Positions 4,325 through 61,704 of a DNA stretch of 64,000 bases are shown in pieces. The DNA lies in assembly GCF_964213995.1 (NCBI RefSeq), contig NC_135805.1, forward strand, positions 145,824,001-145,888,000, in the 5' to 3' direction. Under the pieces are notes generated by a model that saw only the letters and a program-made list of their open reading frames with translations, ran no database searches and had not been told where the DNA came from. A program made the translations under genes and the position numbers. Position 1 is the first letter of the stretch. Every line of letters starts with the position of its first letter. Source of the stretch: Mustelus asterias. Lineage: Eukaryota.

Positions 4325-4702
4325 TTACTTGGAGCTGGTGTACTTGGTCACCGCCTTTGTCCCCTCCGACACGGCGTGCTTGGCCAGTTCCCCGGGCAGC
4401 AGCAGGCGCACGGCGGTCTGGATCTCCCGGGAGCTGATGGTGCTGCGCTTGTTGTAATGGGTCAGGCGGGAAGCCTCACCCGCGATGCGCTCGAAGATGT
4501 CGTTAACGAACGAGTTCATGATGCTCATGGCCTTGGAGGAGATGCCGGTATCGGGGTGAACCTGCTTCATCACTTTGTAGATGTACAGACTGTAACTCTG
4601 CTTCCTGGTCTTCCTCCTCTTCTTACCACTTGCGGTTGCCGGTTTCTTCTGCGCTTTTTTGGCGCCCTTCTTGGAACCTTGGAGTTTCTTTTCTTCAGGC
4701 AT
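4325..4702 (-). CDS. H2B: Histone H2B (125 aa)
   Basis: MPEEKK...[24 protein letters not shown]...AVTKYTSSK*. Confidence 0.97.
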
Positions 4703-4778
4703 GGTGCATGAAGACTGCAGACACAGAATAACTGAAACGTCCCCAGAACTCCTCTCTTAAAGATTAACCCAGACAACT

Positions 4779-6207: not shown

Positions 6208-6316
6208 AGTATTATTCAGTATTAGACATTCTATGTTTCATTATTATCATCAATATTATTTCATAGTTTACATCTTCTGACACGGAAGTTTCATTATTAA
6301 CTCTGTTTCTCCACAG

Positions 6317-9735: not shown

Positions 9736-9759
9736 GGGTGAATGAAAATTCAATATTAA

Positions 9760-11892: not shown

Positions 11893-11904
11893 ATCCCAAA
11901 GGCT

Positions 11905-12730: not shown

Positions 12731-14721
12731 TCTGTGTCTGGGTGTTTTGAAATGAATCTACCAGACGCAGCAAATCATGTGGCTTTTTTTTTACTCTGTT
12801 CATGTCAGTGCATGGAAGATGTGGGTTGTTCTCTGTGGCTGCCAGACTTTACTTTGATAATTGTGGCAGTGTGAGCCAACCTGATACAGTTATCCACGTC
12901 TATGTGAGTATGTTATTTAATTTTGGTTTCTAACAGTCTCTGATGCAGGAAATTATAACGGTTCCAAACCTTGTCATGTTCTGGTTCACTGATTGCTGTG
13001 CTACTCAGTATCTGAGATTTTCTGGTGTGTGGAAGTGGAATTTCACTTGTAAGTGATTGTTTGTGTCTGGAATTCATTCTTTACCTGTTAGTTACTTCAT
13101 CATAATCATATCATAATTCTGTAAGCAATTTTTTGGATAAATGATTGAGGGTTTTCAAACTCTATCTGGAATGTGGCTATGCCCATTATTCACTGTCCTT
13201 CCCTGAATTGTGAACAGATGTTTTTTTTTCTTCCCTGTTTTGTTCCTCGCATTTTAAAGAGGGTTGTACAATGTACCTCTCACAGGAACACAATAATTTG
13301 CACAGGATTAAAGCATGTGGCCCATCACTCCTGCCCCACCATTCAATGTGATCACGAATGATGTTGGATTTCACACTGATTTTCCAAACTGTTGTCCCAT
13401 ATCATTCACCTTCTCAAAAGACTAAACTCTGGGGAATATAATCCTCATTTACTCAGTCTCTCATCATAGGGCACCCTGAACCCAGGTACTAATTTAGTAA
13501 ACACTTGTGAGTACTGTTAACAATAGTAATCTGGTTCTCAGATCTCTTTATGGGATTCTGGGTTTCAGAATTTATGGTTCTGCAAGTGGGTGTTGCTCTT
13601 GTTTGTCTCACTGTCAGAATAAAATTTTCCTTCTATATCAGTCAGTCTGTGGTACTCTGCATGTTGTTTTCGATTCTCGAGAGGAGAAATCAGAGAGTGA
13701 ACACCCTATTATCCAATCCTTAAATGCAATCCTGAAACAAAAGGATTTCTACTCTCGAGTGAATGCTGAACGATTTGCATCACTCTGCATACACCATTTT
13801 CACATCTGAAATGTGAAGTTGTGTATTTTATATCCCTGTGTATCGCTCAGTATTTGTAATGTCGCAAAACTGGAATTAAATCTGTCTTTAAAATGATCCA
13901 GTCCAATCTGTGAGAGTGGGTTCCAGCAGGATCTGTCTGGAACAAATGTGAAGTTGAAGTTGATTGTGATCCAGTCAAAACCTTTGAGTTAGATTTCTTC
14001 AGTGTCATTCAGTCTGTGGCATGTCATGTGACTCCGGATTCAGCTCTGTGTCTATTGCACTTTGAAATATATCGACTGCAAATATTACTGTGGTTATAGC
14101 CCTGTGCGTATTTTTCTCGTAATCTTACTGAGGTGGGATTATTGCATGGCTTGTCAGTTTATTGGAGATTCTGAGATTCTGGACATGATTCTCTATCTGT
14201 CACTCTCTAAAATCAACTACAAGTGTGGATTAAGTCAGTTCTCATCAAGTTCCAGCTGACATTGAGTGTATGATTCATTTGAATATCCTGTGTTTCTGCC
14301 GTTGGGTATTAATGTGCCACTATCTGTCTTTTAGTGCCTGATATATTGTATCATTTCTGGACACATTGTATTTGATTGTAGGGTAGATTCTGTATTAATG
14401 CAGATTTTATATGAACAAGATTATTTTCTTGATTCGTCAGTTTCAGAGAGTGTAAGTGATTGTGGGATTTATTATATAGATTTCAGTCTTGGCAGTTTTT
14501 ATAACTAAGGGCTGCATCCTCAATCTGTCAGCCTCCAGTGCGGTGTGTATATGTAGGAATCATTCTGTTGTTGTTTTGTCTCTGGTATGTTTCGGAAGCT
14601 ATTGTTCTTGGGTCTGTCTGAGGCAAGAATGTAAATGGCAGATTAATTTTGCAGCTATGATTCTGTCATTATCCATAAAAGTGTAGTTTTGAATCTGTAT
14701 CTGTTTTGTCGTATATAAGTG

Positions 14722-15102
14722 GGGGACGAGGGGAGATCTTATTGAAACTTACAGGATACGGCAAGGCCTGGATAGAGTGGACGTGGAAGGATGTTTCCAC
14801 TAGTCGGAAAAACTAGAACCAGAGGGCACAACCTCAGGCTGAAGGGACGATCCTTGGATGAATTTCTTCAGCCAGAGGGTGGTGAATCTGTGGAACTCTT
14901 TGCCGCAGAAGGCTGTGGAGGCCAGATCATTGAGTGTCTTTAAGACAGAGATAGATAGGTTCTTGATTAATAAGGGGTTCATGGATTATGGGGAAAAGGC
15001 AGTAGAATGGGGATGAGAAAAATATCAGCCATGATTGAATGGTGGAGCAGACTCGATGGGCCGAGTGGCCTAATTCTGCTTCTATGTCTTATGGTCTTAT
15101 GG
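14722..15102 (+). mobile_element. CR1 LINE 3' end
   Basis: RGDLIETY...NFFSQRVVNLWNSLP and a (TCTTATGG)n tail; absent at the paralogous site near 52510. Confidence 0.9.
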
Positions 15103-16167
15103 GGTATAGTACTTATTTTTTTTTAAGTTAATTTTTATTTCAAGCATTGAGTTGGAATTTATTTGTTTAACATCTTAACATATCGAAATTTGTTTGATAT
15201 AATTTATAATATGGATTTGATGTATGTTATAGTAATAGACTAATCTCACTAACTGTATTTGAGTTGTGGAATAGTATTCATTTGAAACTATGAATAATAA
15301 AATGTGGATGTATCAATCAGGATTTGGGTGGGATTGTGGTCGGTACAGACTCAATGGGCTGAATGGCCTCCTTCTGTACTGTAGGATTCTATGATTCTAT
15401 GAACAGTGTCGGACTGAACAATTACATTCATTGTTACATTGGGCCTGATGATCTGGCTGTGTCTGTGTACTTTGTGAGTGACACTTTATCCACATTGTCT
15501 TGGAATTAGCTCAGCATTTTAGATTTTAAGTTCTGTCTTTTTAAATTGATACTATTATGTACCTAACTCAATTCAGAAGACATCAGGAGTATCCATTGCC
15601 CGGGTTTGTTCCCGCTTTTTTTGTATGTTTCAAACAATTACTGTTTTAATGATTATTTTTGTTTTGAAATCATTTATTAATTTCCTATTTATTAATTTAC
15701 CAGTACTTTTGTTGCAACAAAGTTTCAAGAAACTTTAATCCAAGAAACAAACATAATTTTACATTTACATTTACTTTGATGTTCTTATTTTACACTACAC
15801 TAAACACTCTGCATTTATAGAAATGCTTCATACCCTTGATCTTTAGAACTTTAAATTTGATGAATATAATGATTTGTGAACAGTTGAATCTGACAGTACC
15901 AATTTCCTGTTACTTCACTCCATGTTAAAATGTTTCCGAATGAATCTTTACCTTGTGCTCATTTTCGACCAGCAGATGGCAACAACAATCCACAATAAGT
16001 TGGATCTTGCCATCTGTGAACACAAACTGGAAAGCAGTGGGCCTGATTCTGCACTTGGAGCTGGTGCATACATGTGTGTCCAGTGGGGGTTGGTGTTTCT
16101 GCATCTCTTGTTTTCTAGTTTGGGAGAATGTCTTCTCTTCTACATTTTTTAATGAGGCCAAGTGAAT

Positions 16168-18980
16168 AAAATGCAATAAAGTTGATGAACTAATCACGCA
16201 GACAGATGTAAACGGGCACAATATAAGTGGGATTACGGAGACATGGCTGCAGGTGACCAGGGATGGGAATTGAATGTCCCAGGGTATTCAATATTTAGGA
16301 AGGACAGGCACAAAGGAAAAGGTGGTGGAGTGACACTGCTGGTTAAAGAGGAAATTAACACAACAGTGGGAAAGGATATTAGCTCTGACAACGCAGAGTC
16401 TGTATGGGTAGAGGTGAGAAATACCAAGGGGCAAAAAACATTAGTGTCATATATATAGACCCCCAAGCTGCAGTTGTGATGTTGGGAATGGATTAAACAT
16501 GAAAATAGAGATGCATGTGATCAGGGAATATCGGTGATCATGGGTGATTTAAATCTGCACACAGATTGGGCAAATCAAATTAGCCACAATGCCGTAGAGG
16601 AGGAATTCCTGGAGTGTATACGGGAAGGTTTTCTTGATATACCTGGAGGAACCAACTAGAGAGCAGGCCATCTTAGACTGGGTACTGTGTAATGAGAAGG
16701 GAATCATTGCCAATCTAGCTGTACGAGACACCTTGGGGATGAGCGACCATAACAGGAGAGAATCTTTTGTCAAGATGGAGAATGAAGTAGTTGATTCAGA
16801 GACCAGGATGCTGAATCTTAATAAAGAAAACTATGAGCATTTGAGGCACAAGTTGGCCGAGATAGATTGGGAGAGTCACTTAAAGGGATGACAGTGGATA
16901 AGCAATGGCAAACATTCAAGGAATGCACGGGGGAACTGGAGCAACTGTTTATTCCTCTCTGGCACAAAAGCAAAATGGGCAAGTGCGCCAATCCATGGTT
17001 CACAAAGGAAATTAGAGAGAGTATCTGATCCAAGGGAGAAGCATACAGATTGCCAAGAATAGTAATAGGTCTGAGGATTGGGAGCAGTTTAGAATTCAGC
17101 AAAGAAAGAGCAAGGGATTGATTAAGAAGGGGAAAATACGGTACAAAAGTAAGCTTGCAGGGAACATAAAGACTGACACTAAGAGTATCTATAGATACGT
17201 GAAGAGAAAGAGGTTGGTGAAGACAAGTGTAGGTCTCCTGCAGACACAAAAGGGGGAAAGTATAATAGGGGACAAAGAAATGGCTGAGCAACTGAATACA
17301 TACTTTGGTTCTGTCTTCACAAAAGAGGACAGAAATGTTGGAGAATGCAAGATTTACTGAGAGGGAAGAACTCAGGGAGATCAATATTAGTAGAGAAATA
17401 GTGCTGGGAAAATTGATGGGATTGAAGGCGGATAAATCCCCAGGGCTTTATAATCTACATCCCAGAGTACTTAAGGAAGTGGTTCTAGAAATAGTGGATG
17501 CATTGGTGGTCGTCTTCCAGGATTCTATAGACTGGGGAACAGTCCCTGAAAATTGGAGGGTAGCTAATATCATTCCAATATTCAAAAAGGGAGGTAGAGA
17601 GAAAACAGAATTATAGACCACTAAGCTTAACATCGGTGGTGTGGGAAAAAAATCTTGAATCCATTATCAAGGATTTTATAGCAGAGCATTTCGAAAACAT
17701 TGGCAGGATCAGACAGGGTCAGCATGGATTTATAAAGGGGAAATCATTCTTGACAAATCTATTGCAATTCTTTGAAGATGTAACTAGTAGAGTTGACAAA
17801 GGGGAACCAATCGATGTAGTATATTTGGACTTTAAGAAAGCCTTTGACAAAGTCCCACATAAGAGATTGTCGTGCAAGTTTAAAGTGCATGAGATTGGGG
17901 TAAGTGTATTAAGATGGATAGAAAACTGGTTGGCAGAGAGGAAACAAAGAGTAGGAATTAATGGATGCTTTTAAAATTGGCACAGTAACTAGTGGGGTGC
18001 CACAGGGATCGCTGCTGGGACCCCAGCTATTCACAATATATACCGGTGATTTCGACGAGGGAACAAAATGTAACATCTCAAAGTTTGCAGCTGATACCAA
18101 GTTGGTGGAGGGTGAACTGTGATGAGGATGCAGAGATCCTTCAGAATGATCTGGACAGGTTGGGTGAGTGGGCTAATCAAAGGCAGATGCAGCATAATTT
18201 GGATAAATGTGAGGTTATTCACTTTGGAAGCAAAAACAAGACGGCAGATTACAGATTACTACCTGAATGGCTGCAAATTGGGAGAGGGGAGTGTGCAGCG
18301 GGACCTAGGTATCCTTGTGCACCAGTGGATGTAGCAGGCAGTAAAGAAGGCAAATGGCATGTTGGCCTTCATTGTGAGAATTTTTGAGTACAGGAGCAGG
18401 GATGTGTTGTTGCAATTATACAGGGCCTTGGTGAGACCACACCTGGAGTATTGTGTGCAGTTTTGGTCTCCTTTTCTGAGGAAGGATATTCTTGCTACCA
18501 ATGGAGTGCAGTGAAGATTTACCAGGCTGATTCTGGGGATGGTGAGACTGATGTATGAGAGGTTGACTAGGTTAGGATTTATTTCACTGGAGTTCAGACG
18601 AATGAGAAGGGGATCTCATAGAGGCTTATAAAATTTGAACAGGACTAGACAGGATAGATGCAGGGAGGATGATCCCGATGGTGGGTGAGGCCAGACCAGG
18701 GGAGGATTCAGAGTAGTCCATTTAGGACTGAGGTGAGGAGACATTTCTTCACCCAAAGAGTGGTGAGCCTGTGCCATTCATTACCACAGGAAGTCATTGT
18801 GCCAAAACATTGAATGTATCCAAGAGGCGGCAAGATAAAGCACTGGGGTGAATGGGATCAAAGTTTATGTGGAGAAAGCAGGGTTAGGCTATTGAGTTGG
18901 ATGATCAGCCATGATCTTAATGAATGGTGGATCAGGCTCGAAGGGCCAAATGGCCTCCTCCTATCTTCTATGTTTCTATG
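16168..18980 (+). mobile_element. CR1 LINE, near-complete degenerate ORF2 (APE endonuclease and RT)
   Basis: GITETWL, MGDFNL, KSPGLYNLHPRVLKE, YLDFKKAFDKVPH; empty site in unit 2 at about 57000 (GCCAGGTGAATGTGGG). Confidence 0.95.
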
Positions 18981-19600
18981 AATGTGGGATCCCTCTGTGT
19001 CTGTCAATTTCCTTTACCTTACTATGGGTTTTGATCATTGTGTTTGTTTATGGGAACTTTACTCTGCATATTGTTAATTGCTGCAACAAAGTGCAACAAT
19101 TGGAGATATTTGGTATATGTGTCAATGACTGTGAGTTTTATACTGAACTTACCATTCTCTGTAACATGAATATGGCTGATATTCTGCAAATAATGTGGCT
19201 AATTAGGAGCTAGGTGCTTTAATTCATTCTATGTTTCTGAAATGTAAAATGTTTCTGACATCCATATGTGTGGGTTTCATTGATAATTTTTTTAACTCTG
19301 TGATATGTCACTGCAGTTGTAATTGCAAATGTAACTGTAATATTCCCTCTGTAAATGCCAGGGTCATCTATGTGTCCATGAATTTATCCTGTGTCCCTAT
19401 GTGGGTACTGCTTTTTCTTCATGTCTGTCATTTTCTGTTTTATTGTGAACCTCTGATATTTGAGTTCAATGTAAATTCTGTACCTTTCAATTTGCCATGT
19501 CCGCATTCACCTTTCTCACCAGTGCCTCCTAGTTGCCCTGCTTACTCAGCTCTCTACTTCACAGTCCACTGTGTTATAGTTATATATGTTATTCTGTACC

Positions 19601-19991
19601 TCTTGTTCTGAGGGAAGGAAGAGTGATTTTGCTTCATAGCTCTTGTCTTTGACCTTTTAACACTGCATGTGATGGTTTTTGCAATGCCTGACTTTCCTAA
19701 AATACGTACATGTCAAAGCTTGTTTGGCAGAAGCAAATGCCTTTGTTTGTCTATAACATTATGATTTGCATTTGTCAGAACACTACATTTGGCGTAGCAC
19801 TTTATAAATTTGAATGGGAATTCTGAACTGCCATGGAAATTTTCAGTTGTGTGAAAGTGATTCCTTTCTGCATTCTAACATCTAACGTATTTTAGGAAAG
19901 TCAGGCATTGCAAAAACCATCACATGCAGTGTTAAAAGGTCAAAGACAAGAGCTATGAAGCAAAATCACTCTTCCTTCCCTCAGAACAAGA
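19601..19991. repeat. Perfect 107-bp inverted repeat (19601-19707 / 19885-19991)
   Basis: Base-by-base reverse-complement match. Confidence 0.92.
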
Positions 19992-20024
19992 TGTGCAAAT
20001 GAGATGTTTGCACATTTCCTGTCA

Positions 20025-23000
20025 GGGGTTTACATTTCTGGATCACTGGGACTGTTTTTGGGGAAGGTGGGACCGGTAAAAGATCTACATCTGAATCAGA
20101 GCAGGACTAACATCCTTGTTGGTGGGTTTGAATGTGCTGTTGGGAAGAGTTTAAACTAGTTTGGCAGGGGGAGGGGACCCAGACTGTGAGCAAAGTAGGG
20201 ACACAGTATAACATTAAAAAGCAATCAGGTCAGAAGGAATACAGCGGTAGTAAGTTTCAAGGGAGTAAAACAAGGCTGGAGGGCCTCTACTTTAAAGCCA
20301 GGAGTATTAAAGGTAAAACGGATGAGTTAAGGGTGAGGATTGACACATGTAATTATGATATAATAGCCATCACAGAAACGTGGTTGAGTGAGGGGCAGAA
20401 TTGGCAGCTCAATGTCCCAGCATATAGAATCTTCAAGCAAGACAGAGGAGGAGGTAAAAGAGGAGGAGGCATTGTACTGTTAGTTAAGGAGGCAGTTACT
20501 GCAGTAAGAAGAGATGATATCTTGGAGGGCGCATCAAATGAGGATTTGTGGGTAGAGCTTAGAAATGAAAAAAGGACAGCTACATTGTTAGGTGTTTATT
20601 ATAGACCCCCAGATAGTCAGTGGGAAATTGAAGAGAAAATGTGTGCGCAATTCGCAGAGGGATGTAAAAATATTAAGAGGGTAATCATAGTAGGTGATTT
20701 CAACTTTCCCAACATTAATTGGGATAGCCATCATGTTAAAGGCTTAGATGGAATAAAGTTCTTAATCTATACAGGGAAATTTCTTAGGTCAATAAGTAGA
20801 GAATCTGACAAGGGGAGGAGCTGTGCTGGACCTAATTCTGGGGAATGAAGCCAGACAGGCGGTTGATGTGTTGATGGGGTAGCATTTTGGTGACAGTGAC
20901 CACAACATGGTTCAACTTAAATTTGTTATGGGCAAAGAAATTGACAACTTGCAGAAAAAAGTTTTGGATTGGGGGAAGAGTAGATTTTAACAAAATTAGG
21001 CAGGATCTGGACAAGGTAGACTGGAACAAGTTACTTGTGGGGAAATCTACAGAAGGGATGTGGGGATGGGGTGTTTGAAGATGAAATGGGGAGGGTACAG
21101 GCTCAACATGTACCCCCTAGGGTAATAGGAAGGTGTAACAAACCCAGAGAACCATGGATGACCAGAGACATTCAGAATACAATCAGAAGGAGAAGAGAAG
21201 CTTTTAACAAGTCTAAGGGGAGTAAGTCTGCGGAGGCATTAGTGGAGTACAGAAAGTGCAGGATGGAGCTTAAGAAATGAATTAGGAGAACAAAGAGGGG
21301 AATAGAGAGAGCTCTGGCTGGTAAAAGTAGGGAAAATCCTAAGATATTCGATAAGAATATCAATGGGAAGCGGATAACCAGGGCAAGAGTAAGGCCTATT
21401 AGGGACCAAGGGGGAAATCTGTAGGTGGAGGCAGAGGACATTGGTCAAGTGTTAAATGAATATTTTGCATCTGTCTTCATACATGAGAGTGAGGAGGTAG
21501 TTATGGAACTCAGGGAGAGAGACTGTGAGGCTCTAGAGAAAATTATCATAGGGAGGGACCAGGGTATTGGAGGTATTGGCAGGCTTAAAAGCGGACAAAT
21601 CTCTTGGTCCGGATGAATTGCGTCCAAGGCTGTTGTGGGAGACAAGGAGGAAATTGCAGGGGCTCTGATCTAAATTTTTAATTCCTCCCATGACCTCCAG
21701 AAAACTGGAGAACAGCTAATGTGGTCCCACTATTTAAGAAAGGTTGTAGAGACAAGCCAAGGAATTACAGACCAGTGAGTCTCACATCTATGGTTGGGAA
21801 ACTACTGGGGAAGATTCTGAAGAAGAGAATCTATCTCCATTTGGAGAGGCAAGGTTTGTTCAGGGATATTCAGCATAGTTTTGTCAGAGGAAGGTCATGC
21901 CTAACAAATTTGATTGAGTTTTTTGAGCATTAACCAAGTGTGTGGATGAGGGTGGTACGGTTGATATAATTTACATGGATTTCAGCAAGCCCTTTGACAA
22001 AGTCCCACATGGCAGACTTAGTAAGAAGACCAATGCACATGGGATGCAGAGTGATCTGACAAGGTGGATACATAATTGGCTTCACGGTAGGAGACCGAGG
22101 GTGGTGACAGACGGCTGCTTTAGTGATTGGTTGTCATGATGTGGAGATGCCGGCGTTGGACTGGGGTAAACACAGTAAGAAGTTTAGCAACACCAGGTTA
22201 AAGTCCAACAGGTTTATTTGGTAGCAAAAGCCACACAAGCTTTCGGAGCTGCAAGCCCCTTCTTCAGGTTCACCTGAAGAAGGGGCTTGCAGCTCCGAAA
22301 GCTTGTGTGGCTTTTGCTACCAAATAAACCTGTTGGACTTTAACCTGGTGTTGTTAAACTTTTTAGTGATTGGTTGCCAGTGACCAGTGGTGTACCAAGA
22401 GATTTGTGCTGGACCCCTTTTGTTCATCATTTATATAAATGACATAGATGACTATGTGGGGGGTAGAATCAGTAAGTTTGCCGATGACACAAAAATTGGC
22501 CGAGTGGTTAACAGTGAGATTGAGTTTCTTGGGTTACAAGAAGATATAGATGAGATGGTCAAATAGGGGAATAAATGGCAGATGGAATTTAACCCTGAAA
22601 AGTGAGAGGTGATACACTTTGGAAGGAGTAATTTGACAAGGAACTATACTATGAAAGGTCTGATACTGGAAAGTTCCGAAGAACAAAGGGACCTTGGCGT
22701 GTTTGCCATAGATCTCTGAAGGCAGAAAGGCAGATAAATAAGGTGGCGAAAAAGGCATATGGCACACTCGCCTTTATCAATCGGGGTAGAGATCACAAAA
22801 GCAGAGAGGTCGTGATGGAGCTATATAGAACTTTGGTAAGACCACAGCTGGAGTACTGTGTGCAGTTCTGGTCGCCACATGTCGGAAGGACATGAATGCA
22901 CTGGAGGGGGTGCAGAAGAGATTCACCAGGATGCTGCCTGAGTTGGAACATTTAAGTTATGAAGAGTGGTTGGATAGACTTGGGTTGTTTTTGTTGGAGC

Positions 23001-23375
23001 AGGGAAGACTGAGGGAGACCTGATTGAGGTGTTCAAGACTACTAGGGGCATGGACAGGGTGGATAGGGAGCAGATGTTCCCCTTAGTTGAAGGGCCAGTT
23101 ATGAGGGACACAAGTTAAAAGTGAGGGGTGGGAGGTTTAGGGAGGATTTAAAGAAAAATATTTTTACTCAGTGGGTGGTGATGGTCTGGAATGCGCTGCC
23201 TGGGAGGGTGGCGGAGGCGGGTTGCCTCACATCCTTTAAAAAGTACCTGGCATGCCATAACATTCAAGGCTATGGGCCAAGTGGGACTAGGTGGGCAGGT
23301 CAGAGCATTTCATGCATCGGTACAGTCTCCATGGTCCAAAGAGCCTCTTCTGCACTGTGGTATTCTGTGATTCTG
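20025..23375 (+). mobile_element. CR1 LINE (ORF1 end and degenerate ORF2)
   Basis: IAITETWL, VYYRPP, VGDFNFP, MDFSKPFDKVPH, KFADDTK, ATTCTGTG tail. Confidence 0.95.
22136..22361. mobile_element. 226-bp palindromic PLE mini-element with two head-to-head hammerhead motifs, nested in CR1
   Basis: 90-bp arms (22180-22269 / 22272-22361) with one mismatch; TSD TTTAGTGATTGGTTG at 22119-22133 and 22362-22376. Confidence 0.92.
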
Positions 23376-24194
23376 ATCATTGAGGGCTGGTGTTTCATTG
23401 TCCCTGAGCATTTCTGGTTTTGATTATCTGTTTTGCTTGGAAACAGAGCCTTGTTTGTACACAAGCTTTGTTTCTTTTTCCTTTCTCTCTCCCTCTCTCT
23501 GTCAGTTTCTGGCACGTGGATGTGAGAATTATCCTGCATCTGTCAATAACTGACATGTGGATTTGATTTTAGTCAGCATGTCAGTTTTAGTTGTGCATGT
23601 AGCTTGTGAATATCAATAAATCACTGGCTTTCACAGGGTTGGAAGTGGGGGCATGTTTTTACATCCTTTAATATAATTTATATGCGTGTCAAGTTAACTC
23701 TGTATCTAATAGTAAATGCAAGATGATTTCTGTGTCCTGGTGCACACATGTGTGTGGCTTGTGCTTGTGAATGAATGTGCTCCATTAACATCTGTGAATT
23801 ATTATTGGTGCATTATTTGACTTCAAGTCAGTATTCAACCTGTGAATGTTCATGTCTCACACTATTCATCAATTTATTTCATGATGGTGTGGCTTTATTC
23901 TGTACCTATGACATTTTGAATCAAATATTGCTGTTTAACTTTTCACACAAGAGTCTTGGAGTAAGAATGGAACTGTCAGCTTATAGTATGGAAGTGTGAT
24001 GTTCCCCATTTTAATTTGCACTAGAAAGTTTTAAATACGTCTTTTTTTTACTGCAGCCATTAATATCTGCACTCTCTCTAATATGTGTGTGTGGATTTTA
24101 CATTGCAACTGTTCACTTTATATGGGAACCCAGGTTTATTTTCCATCAGATTATCTCTCCTATGTGACTGATGTTATTTTATTCTCTGTACATG

Positions 24195-24330
24195 TCCATA
24201 AGACATAGAAGCAGAATTACGCCACTCGGTCCATCGAGTCTCCACCACCATTCAATCATGGCTGATATTTTTTCTCATCCCCATTCTCCTAACTTTCCCC
24301 CATTCCCCCTGATCCCCTTATTAATCAAGA
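24195..24330 (-). mobile_element. CR1 3'-tail fragment
   Basis: Reverse complement of the tail seen at 14960-15100. Confidence 0.75.
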
Positions 24331-25014
24331 ACCAGTTGAGCAAGTTCCAGTATAACATTTTTTATTTGCTATGATCTGATATTATGACCATCAGTGAGAA
24401 TAGTGATCTGGCACATGGTATATTGCTGAAGATGAAACAATATCAAAATAAAGATAAAGTTTGAGATCCTTGTCGAGGAATTTAATGTGTAGTTTTATGA
24501 GATGCCTGGGTACAATGCTCGGATTAATTCTGTGCATTTCGGATTAATTCTGTGCATTTCAGTCATCTGCAGCATCGGATATTTCATTGGCAGCTGAAGG
24601 TCTACACTTGTGAGATGATAGGTCCACCTTTCAATGTGATTTGAGGAAAGGTTGTTTCACCCGGATGGTGCTGGAAGTTAGGAATGCACTGCCTTGGAGG
24701 GTAATAGAGATGGGAAAAACTCAACTTTTAAAATGTACATGGATGAACATTTGAATGTCATAACAGTCAATGTTATGGCAAAGGGTTAGAAAGAGGGATT
24801 ACTGTAGATTTAATTTTGTTGGTCCAGAGTCAATGGGACAAAAGGCCACTTCTGTACACTCTGACTCTGCGATAATGCTTGGGACATTGGACATTGAGAG
24901 ACTCACCTGCACTCAGTGAATGAATTGGGGTTTTTTTTTCCACCTGTCCTTTAATGTATGATTGTTGGATTGAACATGTTTACCTAGAACTTGAGATCCA
25001 GGTGCACCAGTGAT

Positions 25015-25207
25015 CTGGGTGCTCCATTTTCCTCCCACAGTCCAACGATGTGCAGTTAGGTGGATTGGCCATGCTAAATTTTCCCTTAGTGTCAGGGGAC
25101 CATCTAGGGTAAATGCATGGGGTTATGGGGATCGGGCCTGGATGGGATTGTGGGTGGTGCAGACTCGATGGGCCGAATGGCATCCTTCTGCACTGTAGAG
25201 TTCGATT
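25015..25207 (+). mobile_element. Truncated HE1-like SINE
   Basis: CCTCCCACAGTCC...GGCCATGCTAAATT...GGGCCGAATGG. Confidence 0.75.
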
Positions 25208-26174
25208 CAATAAAACTCTGACTCTTTATTCTCTGTGAAGGTGGAACTGATGTTCTGTCTGTGTCCCTGCACTCTAGAATTAATATTGTACCTACTGGCA
25301 GTTAGAAGGCGACAGGAGAACTTATTCTGTGATGAATCCACACCTGGAATTGATTTCTTCATATGTTCACCTCGAGGAAGAAAAGAGATATCTTGTAAGT
25401 TAAGCTCAGACGATGTCAATGAGTCAAAGACATTTTTCAATTGGTAATCAGTTAGAAAAACATGGTCCAGAGATCATAACTAACAATAAAAAAGGTTTCT
25501 CATTTCACTACCACACACAGCCTTTATCCATCCGCTATTTTTGGTGCTTTGATATCACTTGACAACATTTAGAATCTATCCACACCAGTACCGCTCAGAG
25601 GATGTCACTGCCCGGGGGTACAGTGAGATTTCCTCAGATCTGATTACAATTTCACATTTCACTTACCATTTACTGAAACCAACAGCCGCTGCTAACACGT
25701 TTCTTTCTCGTTTCTCAGCAGGATGAGCTGGTGCCTCCGATCAGTGTCAGTTACAGGATTGTTCCCATCCTCACTGTCCCGCCTGTTTCCACCATTCACT
25801 GGGCAGTGCCAACAAAAAAACTGAACCGGGATTATACATCACAGGTTTGAGCAGAGAAAAACCCGATCATTTTCACTAGCAGCTTATTCACCTTCTGGCT
25901 CCCTCAGCAGTGTCTCACACAGTCCCAGGGACGCCTCTCCCTTCCCCCCGGCTCACTCCAATCCCGGAACAGGTTCCTGCTCCGCTCTGCCTCTTACAAA
26001 CAGCTCCCGAATCTCCCTGAACTTCCCCCGAGTCAGTGAGGATCTCTGAGCTCCTCTGTGTCCACACTCACCAATGGATGTGCTGCTGGGATGTGAACGC
26101 TGCTTCCTCGCTGACCTGGGCGCTGACATTTCCATTTCAGTCAGTTTCAAGCAAATGTTCGCCACATCACAAAT

Positions 26175-26260
26175 GGGCGGGGCCAGGGGAGGACAGCGCG
26201 CATGCGTTCTTCTAGTCCCAACCAACCAGGGCCGCGAACAGCGCAGCATCGCGCATGCGC
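26175..26260 (-). promoter_or_regulatory. CpG-rich promoter-like element: GC box and two NRF1-type sites
   Basis: GGGCGGGG at 26175, GCGCATGCG at 26198 and GCGCATGCGC at 26251; all retained at 61485-61559. Confidence 0.6.
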
Positions 26261-26349
26261 CTCTCTCCACAGTCATTCAGAGAACAAATGCAATTTGCTG
26301 AGTTATAATAAAGGCGAAAATACAGCGAATGCTGCAATCGGAAACCACA

Positions 26350-26515
26350 ACAGAAAATGCTGCAAAATCTCAGCAGGTCTGACAGCATCTGTGGAGAGGG
26401 AATAGAGCCAATGTTTCGAGTTAGGAAGAGGAAGGCTCCAAACATTCGCTCTTTTCTCTCTCCACAGATGCTGTCAAACCTGCTGAGATTTTCCAGCATT
26501 TTCTGTTTCTATTCC
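26350..26515. mobile_element. Older palindromic element, probably the terminus of a second PLE family
   Basis: ACAGAAAATGCTG..AAATCTCAGCAGGT.TGACAGCATCTGTGGAGAG arms inverted around a degenerate centre; also present at about 61650-62320, where later insertions split it. Confidence 0.6.
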
Positions 26516-27034
26516 AATTTGCACGGTTCCCCCCGTTTGACGTACTCTCAGTTTGAGCAAAGGAAGCTGGACTGTGGGGGACAGGCACAGAACGGTTCAA
26601 GCTGCTGGATAATCCCTGTCTGAAGTTCAAACTGAGATCATCCCTTGCAGTGCCTTTGCTGTTCATCAGCACATCGTCGCCAATACATCCTCACCCCAAA
26701 TCGGTGTGTTTGCTGTGATATCGCAGGAGTTAATATCTGAATAGAACAATCCCAGATTAATGTAATCAGATTGTTAATGTTGGTCACTGGGCACTGATCG
26801 AGCAATTTGATCAAAATATTCCAGATCATTCCAGAGGATATTGACCATACATTTCAGACATTATTGATCTGATCCTCTGACACATTGCAGGAGATTGGGA
26901 TTAATCCTGTGTCTGCCTCAGGTACAGGATCGGTGAGAGTTGAGTCACAACTTCTCAAACTGCTTGGAAGAGCCCAGGGTGACGTGACCCTGTTCAGACC
27001 AGACTTATTGTTCAATAGTAAATTTCTCAACTCG

Positions 27035-27285
27035 CCTAGGAGAGGAGTTGTTTGGGAATGGAATGGGAGCTGGGATTGAAATGGAAGCACACTGTTCGAC
27101 TCACTGTAGAAAGGATTGCATTGAGACGGGAATATTACTGACATGTCTGGATTGAATAGATCCGGGTTTCTAACCAGCTTGTATATGATATTCCAGTTTG
27201 TACATTTGTTCTGCGCGCTCTTTTCATTTCTGTTTAGAATTTGATTCTAAAATTTCATAGCAGGCAGAAGGAGGAGCTGGTTGAC
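27035..27285 (+). pseudogene. Orphan H4 upstream region with no H4 gene
   Basis: Colinear with 37604-37852 and 62625-62812 (GGATTGAATAGA...TTGTATCTGATATTCCAGTTT...GGAGGAGCTGG), then cut off by a CR1. Confidence 0.7.
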
Positions 27286-31338: not shown

Positions 31339-31399
31339 ACAGCTCCAGCCCAGGCAACATCCAGGTGAATCTCCACTGCACCCTCTCTAGTGCAATTAA

Positions 31400-32560
31400 G
31401 TGGAAACTAGAAGAAGGAATAGGCCATTCGGCCCTTCAAGCCTGCTCTGCTATTCATTTTGATCATGGCTTTTCATCAAATTAAATATCCTGATCCCCAC
31501 TTCCCCCCATTGTGTTTCATCCCTGTAACCCCAAGAGCTGTATCTAACCTCTTATTGAAATCAGACAACATTTTAGCCTCAACTACTTTCTGTGGAAGTG
31601 AATTCCACATATTCACCACCCTCTCGGTGAAGAAATTTCTCCTCAACTCAATTCTAAAAGCTTTACTCCTTATCCTCAAACTATGACTTCTAGTTGTGGA
31701 CTCCTCCATCATTAGGAACATTCTTTCTGAATCTACACTGTCTAACGCTGTGAGAATTTTATAATTGCTGCGAGATCCCCTCTCACTCTTCTAAGTTCCA
31801 GTGAATATAATAATACATGACACAGTCTCTCCTCATATAATAGACATGGCATCCCAGAAATCAGCCTGGTAAACCTTTGCTGTACTCCCTCTATAGCAAG
31901 GATATCCTCCTTCAGATGAGGACACCAAAACTGTACACAATACTCCAGGTTTGGTCTCACCAACGCCCTGTACAATTGCACCGATCCATCCCTATCCCGA
32001 TACTCAAATCCTAATGCTATGAAGGTCAACATACCATTTGCCTTCTTTACTGCCTGCTGTACCAACGTGCTTACTTTCAGCGACAGATGCACAAGGACAC
32101 CAAGGTCTTGCTGAGAATCCACCTCTTTAAATTTACACTCATTCAAGTAATAATCTGTCTTCTTATTATTGCTAACAAAGTGCATAAACTCACATTTATC
32201 CTTATCATACTGTATCTGCCATGCACTTGCCCACACATGCAGCCTGTCCAAATCACGTTGACGCATCTCTGCATCCTCCTCACAGCTCATCTCCCACTCA
32301 ACTATGCATCATCTGCAAATCTGGAGATAATACATTCAATCCCCTCTTCCAACTCTTTAATATATAATGTGAACAATTGGAGTCCTGGCATGGATCGCTG
32401 CAGAATGCCACTCTTCACTGACTTCCAATCAGAAAAGGACGCATTAATGCCAACTCTTTCCTTCCTATCTGCTCACCAGCTTTCTATCCATCTCAAGACA
32501 TAACCTGCAATCTCATGTGCTTAAATTTTACACGGTAGTCTGCTATGTGGAACCTTGTCA
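31400..32560 (-). mobile_element. CR1 LINE 3' part (paralog of 10540-11712)
   Basis: KFADDA, LVRPNLEYCVQFW, RRNFFTERVVNMWNSLP. Confidence 0.9.
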
Positions 32561-32719
32561 AAATCTAGGACTCTACCATTTTTCACCTTTTCCCAATTTT
32601 AAGTTGAATTCAGCAGATAAATCCCCGAGGTTCACAGACTCCCCTCGTATAAGCACACCCCGATATACACATTTCCTTATTTTAGACACACCACTGTTAT
32701 AATCATTCCTCTGATTTAT

Positions 32720-33450
32720 ACACGCCACTGGTTCACACATTCTCCTGGTTTACACACTCCTCTGCTTTACACATTCCCCTACTTTACACACTCCCCTGGT
32801 TTACTCACTCCCCTGGTTTACTCACTCCCCTGGTTTACTCACTCCCCTGGTTTACTCACTCCCCTGGTTTACACAATCCCCTGGTTTGCATGCTCCCCGA
32901 GTTTACCCCCCCCCTCCCCCTCCCCCCACCCCCCAACCCCGCCCCCCGCCTTCCCGGTTTACACACTCCTCTGGTTTACACACTCCCCTGGATTAACACT
33001 CCCCTGGTTTAATTACTCCCCTGCTTTGCACACTCCCCTGGTTTGCGCTCACCCCTGTTTTGCACACTCCTCTTGTTTGTGGACTCCCCTGGTTTGTGCA
33101 CTCCCCTGGTTTGTGCACTCCCCTGGTTTGCGCACTCCCCTGGTTTGTGCACTCCCCTGGTTTGCGCACTCCCCTGGTTTGTGCACTCCCCTGGTTTGCG
33201 CACTCCCCTGGTTTGCGCACTCCCCTGGTTTGCGCACTCCCCTGGTTTGCGCACTCCCCTGGTTTGCGCACTCATCAGGTTTGTGCACGTCTCACGTTTA
33301 CTCACTCCCCTGATTTGAACATTCCCCTGTTTTGCACACTCCCCGGGTTTGCACACTCCCCTCATTTACTCACTCCCCTGGTTTCTGCACTCCCCTGCTT
33401 TCTTCCCTCCTATGGCTTCTGCACTAACTGCTTTGCGCACTCCCCTGTTT
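32720..33450. repeat. 17-bp minisatellite (ACTCCCCTGGTTTGCGC)n with an internal C-rich tract
   Basis: Direct tandem units; 17-aa periodicity in the ORFs of all frames. Confidence 0.95.
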
Positions 33451-33454
33451 GTGC

Positions 33455-34268
<814 letters not shown>

Positions 34269-34611
34269 ATCACTCCCTGTTTTTACACACTCTCCTGGTT
34301 TTAAACACTCCCCTGCTCTCCAAAGTCAACTGGTGCACACAATCTCCTGATTTATGAAGTCCCCTACTTTGATCTGTTTCCAAAGCAATTCTATCCCCCG
34401 TTGAGGACCATATGCTTGGGCCACAGTTATGCATTGTGATATGTATGTATTCTAATGCTGTAGTCATACCACACCTGACATCCTCAGATGATGCATGTGT
34501 TAGTGACAGAGCCATGGAGTGTTACACAATGGAAACAGGCCCTTCAGCCCAAGGTGTCCATGCCACCCAGTTTGTGTGATAGTGTCCTTCATTCTGTTAT
34601 TGACACGGAGT

Positions 34612-35531
34612 TCAGTAATGGATTATACTGTTGCCTCACAGAGCCAGGGATACAGGAGCAATTCCCAGCTTCGGTCACTGTCTGTGTGGATTTTGAATGT
34701 TCTCCCTGTGTCGGCGTGGGATTACTTTGGGTATTCTTGTTTCCTCCCACAGTCCAAAGGGCATGCTGTTTAAATGCATTGGTAATGCTAAATTACCCCT
34801 CAATGTACCTAAAGAGGGACCGGAGTGTGGTAACAAGGGGATTTTCACAGAAACTTCACGTGTAATGTTAGCATTCATGTCAAGAGGGCGAGAATACAAA
34901 AACAGGGATGTACTTCCGAGGCTGTATAAAGCTCTGGTCAGACACCACTTGGAGTATCGTGAGCAGTTTTAGGCCCCATATCTAAGGAAGAATGTGTTGG
35001 CCTTGGAAAGGGTCCAGGGGAGGTTTACAAGAAGTATCCCTCAAATGAAGAGCTTGTCGTATGAGGAATGGTTGAGGACTCTGGATTTGTACTCGTTGGA
35101 GTTTAGAAGGTTGAGGGGGATCTTATTGAAAGTTATAGGACACTGCGAGGCCTAGATAGAGTTGCCGTGGAGAGGATGTTTCCACGAGTAGGAAAAACTA
35201 GAAACAGAAGGCACAGATTTAGGCTACAGGTACGATCCTTTAAAACAGAGATGAGGAGGAATTTCTTCAGCCAGAGAGTAGTGAATCTGTGGATCTCTTT
35301 GCCGCGAACGTTGTGGTGGCCAGGTCATTGAATGTTGTTAAGACAGAGATAGATAGGTTCTTGATTAATAAGGGGATCCAGGGTTATGGGGAAAAGGCAG
35401 AAGAATGGGGATGAGAAAAATACCAGCCATGATTGAATGATGGAGGAGACTCAATGAGCTGAGTGGCCTAATTCTGCTCCTATGTCTTATGGTCTTAGTG
35501 CAGTGTTGATGTAAGCCTACTAATAAATAAA
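34612..35531 (+). mobile_element. SINE split by a CR1 3' end (about 34862-35497)
   Basis: The SINE tail ...AACTTCA|...|TGCAGTGTTGATGTAAGCCTAC resumes after the CR1 tail. Confidence 0.8.
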
Positions 35532-36689
35532 CCTATCTTCCACTTAATGTTCAATGTTCATTCTCCCATTGTCACCCTTACTACCTTTATTTATCTCCCG
35601 TTTAATCCCTCCATCTCCCTCCAAATTTATACCTTTGTCTTTCTCTGTGAATTCCTCATTCTTTCTCTAACTCTGTCTGGCTCTATCCCCCTGTTTCTCT
35701 TTTCTCCATCTCCCTCTCAATAAGTCTCATCATCTCTCTTTGTCTCTGGCTATGTGTCTCCCCATCTCTCTCTCTCTCTCATTTGCAGTATGTTACTGCG
35801 TGCGGTTTGGACAAAACGATGACATGTGTAACACTGACATGCACTGTGAACACTGCTGCCGTGTTGTGGATGAGACGGTTCCTGTCCCGTTTCCTCAGAA
35901 TGTCCTGGTCCATGATTTTATCTTTAGTTTTTAAATCTGTAGTTCAGTTCTGAATGGTCAGAGTTTGCCTTTGACTGTCAGCAACCCCAGTATCAGCGGC
36001 AATGGGATTATTCCTTAACTGGACGTCCCTGCTGTTTGAGTTCAGGGTTTAGTGTTCCTGAGCAGTGGAAGAGGATAAACTCAAACTGGAAAATCTCGAG
36101 TTTTAGTGAAGAGATCATTTGTATTTTCACCTTGAAGAAAGATGCACGATCAGAGTAATTTCATGAAAACGCATCTGATTGGCTGTTGCTGGGGAGTGAG
36201 GTGAACACAATATGTGGGGCAGGAAATACAGAGAAATTAACAAAGTGAAGGGAGGATTTACAATTACCCAAAAGAACAGGGAAAAGCGTGGAAGAGAGGG
36301 GCAATATGCCCTGGGAAGTTTAAATTGCGAAATCATTTTAGCCTGGGATTGTGTAGATGTGAATATTGTGCAGGAGAGAGTGTGTGATAGGGGCGGGGGA
36401 ACCAGGAGAACATCACTGTGTTTGTGTGTCCGTTCAGATTGTGAGATCTCCGCATCATTCCTGTGTAAAATAAAAATATTTTTCAATCAAATTCTCCCCC
36501 TGTATCCCTCCTACTTCTCAAAGTTAGATTTCAATGCAATTTCCATTTCGGTTTCCAACTTTCAGTCGAAAAGTGAGGAAGATGACAGCGATGGGGTGAG
36601 AGAGCGCGAACAGTACAGCAGCGAAACGGGATTTAATCCCAAATGCAGCCTTCAATCCGGGTGAAATATTTTCAGGAACAGACATTAGG

Positions 36690-37202
36690 ATGTCAGACAC
36701 AATGAGGATTGAAAGCAACAGGTCCCAGATCGTGGCGGAATGCAAGAATCGCAAGGGGATCTCCGCTGCCGCCATCAAGAAGGCGCTGCGGAGCAAAGGG
36801 GTGAATGTGGTGAAACGGGTGGCCCAGATCAGGCAAAGTTTAAGGAGGAATGTGGAAAATGGAAAGCTGATTCAGCACAGTGGTACTGGCGCCTCCGGCT
36901 CCTACAGACTCGCTCAGAAAACAGCGGAGCGGAAAACTGTAAAGAAGGTAAAGATAGGTGCGGCCAGGAAAACCCCAGTGAAGAAAGCGGTGGCCAAGAA
37001 AGCAACAAAGAAACCGGCAACAATGAAACCCACAGCGAAGAAAACAGTCAAGAAAGCAATCAAGGCGACAATTCCAAAAAAGAGCGTGAACAAAGCATCC
37101 CCCAAGAAAAAGATTGTTGTGAAGAAGGTCACGAAGGGAAAGACATTAAAAGCCAAACCCAAAGCGGCTGCAGCAAAGTCTAAGAAAGCAGGGAAGAAGT
37201 GA
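36690..37202 (+). CDS. H1: Linker histone H1, 5'-truncated or chimeric (possible pseudogene)
   Basis: RKGISAAAIKKAL...GTGASGSYRL globular core and K/A/P-rich tail; lacks the N-tail and the start of helix 1. Confidence 0.75.
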   Translation: MSDTMRIESNRSQIVAECKNRKGISAAAIKKALRSKGVNVVKRVAQIRQSLRRNVENGKLIQHSGTGASGSYRLAQKTAERKTVKKVKIGAARKTPVKKAVAKKATKKPATMKPTAKKTVKKAIKATIPKKSVNKASPKKKIVVKKVTKGKTLKAKPKAAAAKSKKAGKK

Positions 37203-43017: not shown

Positions 43018-43831
<814 letters not shown>

Positions 43832-51528: not shown

Positions 51529-53944
51529 TTGTGAAATAGACTGTTCACGCTATGATTTCTCCTCTCTGTGTACCCTCAATGATTTGCATCACTCTGCACT
51601 CACCGCTTTTGCATATTATATGTGAATATGTGGATTTTGTGCCTGTGTTATCGCTCAGTATTTGTGAAGTATGCATAACTGGGATTCAAACTGTCTCTGT
51701 CTTGTAATGCCTGTGAGAGTTTGTTCCAGCAGAATCTGTCTGGAAAAAATGTAAGGTTGAAGTTGATTGTGATCCATTCAAAATATTTGAGTTAGATTTC
51801 TTTAGTGGTCATTCAATCTGTGGCATGTTATATGTTTGTGGGATTCAGCTCTCTGTCTACTCAATTTTGAAAGAACATCTATTACATATATGACTGTGGT
51901 GAAAGCTCTGCACTGAATGTTCTCATAATCTCAGTGAGGTGGGTTTAGTGCATGGCTTCTCAGTTTCTTGGATATTTTGTGAGTGTAGACATGATTCTAT
52001 ATTTCCCTTGAATCAAATACGAGTGTGGATTAACTCATCAAGATGTAGCTGACATTGTGTGTTTGATTTATTTAAATTCCCTGTGTTTCTGCTGTTGGGT
52101 GTGAGTGTCCCATCATCTGTGTCTTTCAGTGCCTGATACATTGCATCATTTTCAGACTAATTGTATCCGATTGTGGGGTAGTTTCTGTTTTCGTGTAGAT
52201 CTTTTATGAACAAGATTATTTTCCCGATTCTTCTATTTCAGAGAATGTAAATGACTGGGATTTCTTATATAGATTTCAGTCTTAGCAGTTTTTATAACTA
52301 AAGGCTGCATCCTCAGTCTGTCAGCCTCAAGTATGGTGCATACAGGTAGGAATCAATCAGTAGTTTTTCTTTCACTGGTAAGCTTTGAAAGATTGTGTCT
52401 GTCTGAGGCAAGAATGTGAATGCCAGATTCATTTTGCAGCTATGATTCTGCGCTTATCTATGTAAGTGTAGTTTCCAATCTGTATCTGTTTTGTCGTATG
52501 TAAATGTGGGATATTCTGTGTCAGAACTTTATTTTTATCTCTGGTATTATGTTGGAAATATTTGTTTAATGCATTAACATATTGATATCTGTTCATCATA
52601 GGATCTAATTTATAATATGGATTTGATCTATGTTATAGTAATAGGGTACTCTCACTTGCTGTATTTGAGTTGTGAAATAGTATTCATTTTGAAAATATGT
52701 GAATAATTAAATGCTTCAGTGAGATCCATGGCCTCGCATTTAATTCCTGCAGTGTGTAATAAAAGACTTGTCCTCTTATCTTTCAGTTTTATAGAATGGG
52801 CAGGGATTTTTTATTTTGGACTGGTGTGCAACATGTGACCTTGGTTGAATTCTTGGGTACTTTGTTGCAATTATTACAGATTCTGTCTATAAGTTAATCT
52901 CTGCCTATTCTAGCTAAGAATAGCTATTTTATTTCTGACCAGTGTCACAAGGACATTTAAATCAGGCATTTTAAAATCCTGTAATTGATGTCTCCACCTC
53001 TCAACTGGGTTAGAGGGAAATTTGAAAAAGTCGCCCAATGGCACTCTATTTTACTCTTGGATTGAAAAGTGATCTCTGACCTTGGAAATGGTGTGGGTAT
53101 GAATAATTATATTCTTTGTTACATTGAGCCTGATGATCTGGCAGTATCTGTGTACTTTGTGAATGACACTTTATATACATTGTGTTAGAATTATCTTGGC
53201 ATTTCAGGTGTTTATGTTCTGTCTTTTTAAGTTGATACTATTATGTATCTACCTCAATTACAGACTTCAGCAGGCATCAGGAGAATCCATTGTCTGAGCT
53301 TGCAATCATTTTTTTATTGTATGTTTCAGGGTTAAGGATTGCTTTTTTACTTGAATTAATTTATTAATTTACAGGCCTATACTTTTGTTGTAACAAAGTT
53401 TCTATTCGAGAATCAAGTAGAATTTTACATTGAAAACACATTCATGGTAAGATTATGTTGTTATTCTTATTTTAACAATGACCAACGTCAATGCTGGAAA
53501 TATTTAATTAAGTGCATTAAAAGTATAGAAAATATGGGAACACTGCAAAAGCCGTGAATCAAACTATGGTCAGTGGCATGGAAGGCAACCCTTCTCACAG
53601 CTATCTGAAAATTGTACTTCACACTATGCTACACGCGCTGTATTCATAGAAATGCTTCATACCCTCGATCTTTGCAAGCTCAAGCTTAGAACTTTAAATT
53701 TGATCCATATAATGATTTGCGAATAGCTGAATCTGATTGTGCCAGTTTCCTGTTACCTCGTTCCAAGTTTCTGAATGAATCTTTACCTCGTTGCATGCCT
53801 CATTATCAACAAGCAGATGGCACTAGTCCACAAAAAAACTGGATCTTGCCATCTGTGAACACAAAACTGGAAAGCAACAGGCCTGAAGCTGCACTTGGAG
53901 CTGGTGAAGATATCCTTCATCAAGAGGCAAATGCAGTCATCAGT

Positions 53945-60515: not shown

Positions 60516-60922
60516 ATTACAGGATTGTTCCCATCCTCACTGTCCCGCCTGTTTCCACCATTCACTGGACAATGCCAACAAACAAGCTGAAACAGCAGCT
60601 GAACCGGGGGATTATACATCACAGGTTTGAGCAGAGAAAAGCCCGATCATTTTCACTAGCAGCTTTTTCACCTTCTGGCTCCCTCAGCAGTGTCTCACAC
60701 AGTCCCAGGGACGCCTCTCCCTTCCCCCCGGCTCACTCCAATCCCGGAACAGGTTCCTGCTCCGCTCTGCCTCTTACAAACAGCTCCCGAATCTCCCTGA
60801 ACTTCCCCCGAGTCAGTGAGGATCTCTGAGCTCCTCTGTGTCCACACTCACCAATGGATGTGCTGCTGGGATGTGAACGCTGCTTCCTCGCTGACCTGGG
60901 CGCTGACATTTCCATTTCAGTC

Positions 60923-61432
60923 ATGATGTGGAGAGGGCCTTCGCGACACACGACAGCGCAGAGTCGCGGAGCAGAAACTGATAGCCAGGTTCCGCACACA
61001 CAAGGACGGCCTCAACCGGGATATTGGGTTTATGTCACACTATTTCACATAAATATTTCTGCTTTTTTCCTCCTGAGTCTTTATCATGCGATCCTAGAAT
61101 CAGAATTTATGTCACACTATTTGTAACTCCCACAGTTGCGTGGACCTGCAGAGTTTCACTGGCTGTCTTGTCTGGAGACAATACACATCTTTTTAGCCTG
61201 TCTTGATGCTCTCTCCACTCCCATTGTTTTGTTTCTTAAAGACTGGATTAGTTGTAAGTATTCGCATTCCAACCATTATTCATGTAAATTGAGTCTGTGT
61301 CTTATAAGTTCTGTTTGTGAACAGAATTCCCACTCACCTGAAGAAGGGGCTCAGAGCCTCGAAAGCTTGTGTGGCTTTTGCTACCAAATAAACCTGTTGG
61401 ACTTTAACCTGGTGTTGTTAAACTTCTTACTG
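60923..61432 (+). mobile_element. PLE 3' fragment (EN tail and pLTR, hammerhead at 61335-61371)
   Basis: 16-bp TSD ATTTCCATTTCAGTCA; empty site at about 26128-26143. Confidence 0.92.
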
Positions 61433-61704
61433 TATTTCCATTTCAGTCAGTTTCAAACAAAGGATTTCCGCTCACTGAGGAAATGGGCGGGGCCAGTGGA
61501 GGGAAGCGCGCATGCGTCAGGGCATCAGGGCTGCGAGCAGGGCAGCATCGCGCATGCGCGCCTCTCCACAATCATTCAGAGAACAAATGCAATTTGCTGA
61601 GTTATAATAAAGGCAAAAATACAGCGGATGCTGCAATCTGAAACCACAACAGAAAATGCTGCAAAATCTCAGCAGGTCTGACAGCATCTGTGGAGAGAGA
61701 ATAG

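Follow-up and report, generated by a model that had tools for sequence, protein, structure and literature searches.

A candidate spliced noncoding passenger of histone units in a secondary histone cluster of the shark Mustelus asterias

Introduction

Can a histone repeat carry a further, hidden transcription unit besides its histone genes, and what would keep such a unit in place? This question is raised by a stretch of 64,000 nucleotides, here called the window (G000:C5:145824001-145888000, in a genome of 3.68 Gb), which contains H3, H2A, H2B, H1, H4, H3, a broken H2A and H2B, and H4. A first-pass annotation of the letters proposed a sixth, spliced, minus-strand transcription unit with an NRF1/GC-box promoter in both histone units of the window (units 1 and 2), together with a 313-bp block that is nearly identical between them.

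Genomic setting of the block

Across the genome, the 313-bp block is present in 11 copies, all on contig C5, at one end of the chromosome, between 144.36 and 145.89 Mb. Three DNA searches returned the same 11, which is a lower bound because the search skips very common words. Histone genes surround 11/11 copies in the 464 kb fetched around them, and the anticipated linkage to histone clusters is thus borne out. The copies occupy a fixed place and share one direction, away from H1/H4. At 9/11 copies an H4-promoter-like segment lies just upstream on the opposite strand, and in 10/11 the spacer shared downstream reaches a same-strand H2B or H2A gene. In unit 1, the H4-promoter-like segment (27019..27283, plus strand; 83% identical to 37584-37848 upstream of H4) is the divergent neighbour of the promoter described below. 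At the spacer's far end, the H2B gene (4325..4716, minus strand) has an acceptor-like YAG (4715-4717) 12 nt before its ATG.

Two parts of the earlier proposal need to be narrowed. The unit had been placed upstream of H4, but the nearest H4 of unit 1 is 11.7 kb off with H1 in between, and what does lie 0.8 kb upstream is the H4-promoter-like segment. Likewise, the term sixth unit of the histone repeat applies to some C5 units and not to the main clusters: exon 1, defined below, was detected neither in other C5 histone units nor in the main units, which are 64 kb long and lie on C85, C103 and C130. Exact H4 matches number 60 among 150 scored (281 candidates), and 14 of them are on C5. A metagenome scan gave 0 matches.

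The C5 cluster has further peculiarities. H2B (window 4325-4702) is 82-91% identical to most other copies and unlike main-cluster H2B, and H1 (window 36690-37202) is 54-59% identical to main-cluster H1 over the matched part. Judged from sequence, these differences suggest a variant histone set in the C5 cluster. Broken histone genes are present in several C5 units; in unit 2, H2A is diverged (window 43021-46875 region) and H2B there is split by insertions. Unit 1 contains an internal duplication of the H2B-proximal spacer (6213-8557 versus 12357-15632) and an inverted duplication of the sequence upstream of H1 (8557-11768 versus 31342-36477), where a degenerate short-period tandem array is also found (window 32629-33455). 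Elsewhere in the assembly, C561 closely mirrors C5:146.08-146.14 Mb and C940 mirrors the end of C102; these contigs are possibly haplotype duplicates.

Exon map and splicing

Exon joins were sought in assembled contigs of relatives, namely 5 of 13 RNA-like public runs that were classed as RNA by guess; the 13 come from five other organisms, and the 5 from four related organisms and five studies. As for the spacer, the evidence is limited to the parts that these contigs cover. Runs X1-X4 were compared with the window, and X1, X2, X4 and X12 with a repeat-poor copy, L049:5680-9790. Such contigs carry neither strand nor start nor level, and the minus strand follows from the GT-AG orientation.

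Exon 1 (25892..26160, minus strand), the most homogenised part among the 11 copies, ends at the donor AAG|GTGAAT, whose GT at 25891 is kept in 11/11 copies. A joint in X12 (5926>6031 on copy L049) matches the GT-AG intron between exons 1 and 2 exactly: it skips from AAG|GT, the homologue of 25891, to CAG|TG (25798), with a short side of 31 letters and a depth of 18. The X1 contig ends at 25891. Intron 1 (25799..25891, minus strand, 93 nt), skipped in X12, is retained in X2, X3 and X4 contigs. Exon 2 (25667..25798, minus strand) has the acceptor CCCAG in 10/11 copies and the donor ATG|GT in 11/11. Exon 3 (25296..25370, minus strand, 75 nt) keeps its acceptor AG in 7/11 copies and its donor GT in 10/11. 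Exons 2 and 3 are joined in X4 record 21 and X2 record 17 of the joint tables, and X1 record 3 of the piece table fits; in X4, the 64 letters between plus 1 shared letter give the 65 expected. The sequence at the loose end of X4 record 21 aligns immediately after TTCACAG at 16013, at a distance of 9.3 kb, where exon 4 starts (15952..16013, minus strand; 3' end presumed from the donor AAG|GTAAAG at 15951). This join of exons 3 and 4 has 28 letters on the exon-4 side. X2 record 17 (1219 nt) lacks intron 2 and retains introns 1 and 3, as would be expected of a partly spliced precursor. In unit 2, exon 1 (60672..60923, minus strand) is identical to that of unit 1 at 252/252 bases, and an exon 4 homologue is found by sequence match at 53790..53852 on the same strand.

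Contigs of the relatives cover 25654-26207 and have upstream ends at about 26147-26220, around the GC box. Their depth over the block is 3-33, compared with thousands on the flanking repeats. Each junction is backed by one to three contigs at a depth of 4-18. We consider it very probable that the locus gives rise to a spliced minus-strand unit with three GT-AG introns and a transcript of >200 nt.

A spliced minus-strand unit leading away from H4/H1 had been foreseen, and the GT-AG joins in the relatives' contigs agree with it. The five splice motifs then named also occur on the minus strand as described (TTG|GTGAGT at 26071, CCCAG| at 25799, ATG|GTAAGT at 25666, TAG|GTAAAC at 24983 and CAG|GTGAGT at 24906), but not all are used as predicted. 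The predicted junction 26072>25798 finds no support in the relatives, in which its donor reads GG in 5/5 runs and the contigs run through to splice at 25891. The motif TTG|GTGAGT (26066..26074, minus strand) falls inside exon 1 there; its GT is present in 11/11 copies here, and it may be an alternative donor used in this species only. Neither 24983 nor 24906 is used by any of the joins listed (15 of 143 for the window).

Promoter and start region

Motif search places an NRF1-type palindrome, GCGCATGCGC, at 26251..26260 as the distal promoter site and a second NRF1-type site at 26198..26206. The GC box CCCCGCCC at 26172..26181 is matched in 10/11 copies at <=2 mismatches and sits just upstream of a presumably dispersed transcription start region (26147..26220). 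The latter derives from the ends of X1-X4 contigs, which hint weakly at a start and cannot prove one. The same arrangement of two NRF1-type sites and a GC box is found by motif search in unit 2 (61485..61559), all on the minus strand as in unit 1. Both promoters are located where the first-pass annotation had put them. The names NRF1, GC box and ETS are ones that we assume for these motifs. Within the 64 kb, GCGCATGCG occurs at 26198, 26251, 61508 and 61550 only, all in the two promoters; its 6 strand matches compare with 0.09 expected, and 0/100 shuffles reached 6. GGGCGG is located at 26175 and 61485.

In unit 2, a retroelement inserted at the start region (60924-61434, about 510 bp, no strand assigned) with a 16-bp target-site duplication. 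It separates the promoter from exon 1, and its insertion junction forms the 5' edge of the 313-bp block. The same family, which we take to be Penelope-like, lies no more than about 50 bp from the start in 4/11 copies: unit 2 and the copies at C5 145.79, 145.187 and 145.195 Mb. Three of these insertions are at one and the same site; their ends differ, and they are 74-83% identical. A sister copy of one carrier is free of the insertion. Such a hot spot lends slight support to open germline chromatin, because the retroelement prefers a target motif similar to the start-region site and this preference explains part of the pattern.

Coding potential and RNA structure

The RNA is likely noncoding, as judged on the part up to exon 4. 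The first-pass annotation saw no convincing open reading frame, and we agree. One candidate, a 60-codon frame in exon 1, has 12 synonymous and 23 nonsynonymous variant codons and changes that fall 13/13/14 on the three codon positions, and it is frameshifted in at least three copies. It has no homologue among longer or similar-length proteins, nor among 1.84 billion representatives, and no Pfam family. We reject it as a gene on these grounds. The spliced model contains stops in all frames, and the majority spacer holds no gene-like frame except H2B. A signal-peptide reading of exon 4 (MARSNLLWIVVAIC...) was discarded as well, with its ATG present in 2/7 mapped copies only and indels breaking the frame.

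No Rfam family reaches threshold in the region, and sub-threshold miRNA matches at 26347-26499 fall on a high-copy repeat. Nine segments compared with shuffles contain no stable fold (z -1.4 to +1.6), and the window contains no tRNA. A role as host of a miRNA, snoRNA or other Rfam RNA was therefore rejected, given no family match and no stable hairpin in exons or short introns. The suggestion of a small-RNA precursor finds no backing in these folds or families.

A decayed single C2H2 finger (window 50960-51060) adjoins an inverted spacer piece in unit 2 only, and the piece that carries it also occurs on C4, C13, C16 and elsewhere. The finger motif has one match in the 464 kb around the 11 copies. 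The idea of a decayed zinc-finger gene was dropped because only unit 2 has the remnant at 51018, which sits on a small dispersed piece.

Homogeneity among copies

Alignment of units 1 and 2 confirms the reported near-identity: 25831-26143 and 60611-60923 differ at 2 sites (0.6%), and the distal spacers of the same units differ by 18%. Mean identity among the copies is 95.2% in exon 1, 92.9% in intron 1, 91.5% in exon 2, 85.6% in intron 2, 82.9% in exon 3, 83.5% in exon 4 and 80-82% in the spacer. Upstream, the first 750 bp or so remain 88-99% identical, beyond which identity declines to about 80%. The slope of identity follows the distance from the start and not exon or intron status.

Block and spacer yield different trees. 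Distances in exon 1 do not correlate significantly with spacer distances (Mantel p 0.11), whereas distances in proximal intron 3 do (Mantel p 0.004). Copies with cut or displaced promoters are still 94-99% identical. The spacers of paralogues within the genome differ by 14-23%, apart from one recent pair at 2.7%. At the 4-fold sites of the C5 histone genes, differences amount to 1.6% in H4, 3.8% in H3, 6.3% in H1, 8.9% in H2A and 11.6% in H2B; exon 1, set beside these, differs by 2.5% over all its sites. The homogeneity of exon 1 matches that of the silent sites of H3 and H4, so that exon 1, too, undergoes concerted evolution. The claim that the block is maintained together with the histone genes stands as concerted evolution; the near-identity, which conversion would explain, is by itself no proof of function. 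Localised gene conversion between units is the likely source of this near-identity, which does not prove selection at the RNA level.

Comparison with the relatives points the same way in part. Among the differences listed, 12 sites were considered; all of X1-X4 differ from unit 1 at 10, and at 7/10 of these the relatives' letter is present in 0/11 copies. Exon 1 differs from the relatives' contigs by about 4-6% and spacer pieces by 6-17%. The lower divergence of exon 1 would also fit selection on it. These values give no verdict on selection, because orthologues are inseparable from paralogues and the spacer pieces may be paralogous.

The shared spacer (window 5000-24400) is A-rich on the minus strand, with an A-T skew of up to +0.37 that is interrupted near exons 1-3 and near exon 4. 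Germline transcription of a strand leaves the opposite skew. The A-richness counts against germline transcription of the minus strand for this reason, and could be a mark of plus-strand transcription from the H2B side.

Remote homology in the main histone clusters

In the main units, collinear remote homology (E 3e-10) extends from the last part of intron 1 through exon 2, including its acceptor AG, into the first part of intron 2, and later spacer pieces are also kept there in collinear order. All exon-2 homologues (27/27 candidates) are on histone-cluster contigs. The main-cluster homologue that was aligned keeps the acceptor AG at about 70% identity. Moreover, the main units have an NRF1/ETS-type CpG island of their own, which precedes the exon-2 homologue by 6-17 kb and shares its strand. 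The 40 places scored of 145 candidates for this island are all on histone-cluster contigs or C959. Its similarity to exon 1 is marginal for one variant, whose score was reached by 1, 4 and 96 of 200 shuffles. For another variant there is none, as 145-196 of 300 shuffles reach the score. A profile search gave no match. At L058:8560-8880 (G000:C130:206560-206880, minus strand) the island contains a Kozak-like ATG. The island may possibly represent a second family of hidden transcription units.

Alternative readings and proposed mechanism

What is the unit for? Exon 1 might be under purifying selection as part of a functional lncRNA, acting for example at the histone locus body. The lower divergence of exon 1 than of spacer pieces from the relatives, the intact donors 25891 and 25666 in 11/11 copies and the survival of the exon-2 acceptor AG in the main-cluster homologue all speak for it. 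We regard this as unlikely nonetheless. Conservation in exons 3 and 4 does not exceed that of introns, exon 2 is less well kept than intron 1, and copies whose promoters are damaged are homogenised to the same degree. Moreover, no stable fold appears in the nine segments examined, and no Rfam family in the region. No more probable is a bolder variant, in which an old cell-cycle-independent promoter that predates the split of cluster types drives a sixth concerted gene whose RNA regulates the locus or leads into H2B/H2A. A little less credible again, the unit could be a remnant 5' leader: a protein-coding gene, duplicated with the histone unit, would have decayed, its promoter still firing and nothing depending on it. 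Several small exons with ordinary splice sites, the loss of the exon 3 acceptor in 4/11 copies and an ancestry common with the main clusters, where remnants only occur, are as this reading would have them, but the majority spacer contains no frame other than H2B, no protein homologue was found and the sole zinc-finger remnant (51018) occurs in unit 2 only, on a small piece that is itself dispersed.

We likewise doubt, slightly more strongly, that an alternative upstream promoter splices leader exons into H2B or H2A and thereby supplies histone mRNA outside S phase. Both genes lie downstream on the same strand, and a YAG precedes the ATG by 12 nt in 10/11 of the C5 H2B genes with ATG located; the same YAG is present in units without the promoter, however, and among the compared runs no read joins any exon to H2B. 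An X12 contig does leave the exon-1 donor (L049:5928) into sequence that matches H2A coding DNA exactly over 19 nt, but it is a single contig, its H2A-like part begins mid-gene behind 9 non-H2A letters, and the junction was not found in this genome. A precursor of piRNA or other small RNA appears improbable. Its primary transcript would cross 10 kb or more of spacer in which LINE and SINE pieces abound; these insertions vary between copies and are removed together with intron 3, and no hairpin was found. Finally, something with no relation to histone units, a dispersed repeat or a chance cluster of motifs, could hide behind copy counts that are lower bounds. The location of 11/11 copies in histone units and the exact exon joins refute it, and the low depth over the block compared with the flanking repeats agrees, so that we give it almost no credence.

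On balance, we lean towards a multi-copy spliced noncoding unit with an NRF1/GC-box promoter, a conversion-homogenised exon 1 and a benefit that comes from the promoter. The promoter, co-duplicated with the histone genes, would fire away from H1/H4 and would be of the constitutive CpG-island Pol II type, unlike the S-phase TATA promoters beside it. The RNA, with short reading frames only and these upstream of introns, would be unstable. Exon 1 would be homogenised by ectopic gene conversion between units, as would H3 and H4, with breaks probably drawn by open promoter chromatin. Species without a working PRDM9 recombine at promoter-like features, and a partial PRDM9 is described for some cartilaginous fish, according to the available portion of PMC5519329. 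Any benefit is probably conferred in cis, through promoter activity and the act of transcription and not through the RNA sequence; we propose that it would consist of an open, unmethylated region beside the H1/H4 promoter.

Significance and comparison with known systems

A literature search turned up no earlier account of a unit of this kind, and the loci may already be present in genome annotations as unnamed lncRNA models. The spliced, probably noncoding gene is likely a new kind of histone-repeat passenger, residing in a secondary histone cluster and with a putative function. If real, it would be a vertebrate case in which a spliced Pol II-type noncoding gene is duplicated and homogenised along with histone genes. 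It would also offer a natural test of how constitutive and S-phase histone promoters share one locus, and of whether conversion in multigene arrays starts at promoters: conversion marks a noncoding first exon as sharply as H3/H4 while the spacer drifts by about 20%. For comparative work, this is a warning that near-identity of paralogous noncoding blocks need not mean selection.

One class with which the unit can be compared comprises the divergent, promoter-associated lncRNAs of CpG-island promoters. It resembles them in its NRF1-type and GC-box motifs, its dispersed start, its head-to-head position with a coding gene, its splicing, its poorly conserved downstream exons and its lack of an open reading frame. 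In contrast to them, the shark unit is served by a separate promoter, 0.8 kb or more from that of the histone gene, and exists as 11 homogenised copies, and its neighbour is a replication-dependent histone gene.

Non-histone passengers of histone repeats are known: 5S rRNA in Artemia and Mytilus, and the rRNA cistron in the boll weevil and Potamopyrgus (PMC13525598). In the available portion of that source the linked passengers are rRNA genes, and the words shark and noncoding each occur 0 times. tRNA genes have been described beside a ray histone cluster, as far as the accessible part of that report goes (10.1101/2025.06.08.657570). Like the rRNA passengers, as these are presented there, the shark unit is a second, non-histone unit duplicated with the histone quintet and subject to concerted evolution, and a cell-cycle-independent gene sharing a locus with S-phase genes raises the same question in both. 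Unlike them, it yields a spliced RNA of Pol II type that belongs to no known family, with no Rfam match, and is not rRNA; it is found in a vertebrate and in a subset of units.

As for its mode of evolution, the unit is reminiscent of the concerted evolution of tandem histone genes (PMC13525598) and of promoter-directed recombination (PMC5519329), so far as the available portions of these sources describe them, in that paralogues are closer than orthologues at exon 1, H3 and H4. It departs from concerted tandem histone genes, as portrayed there, in that homogenisation is confined to islands and the spacers of these units differ by 14-23%.
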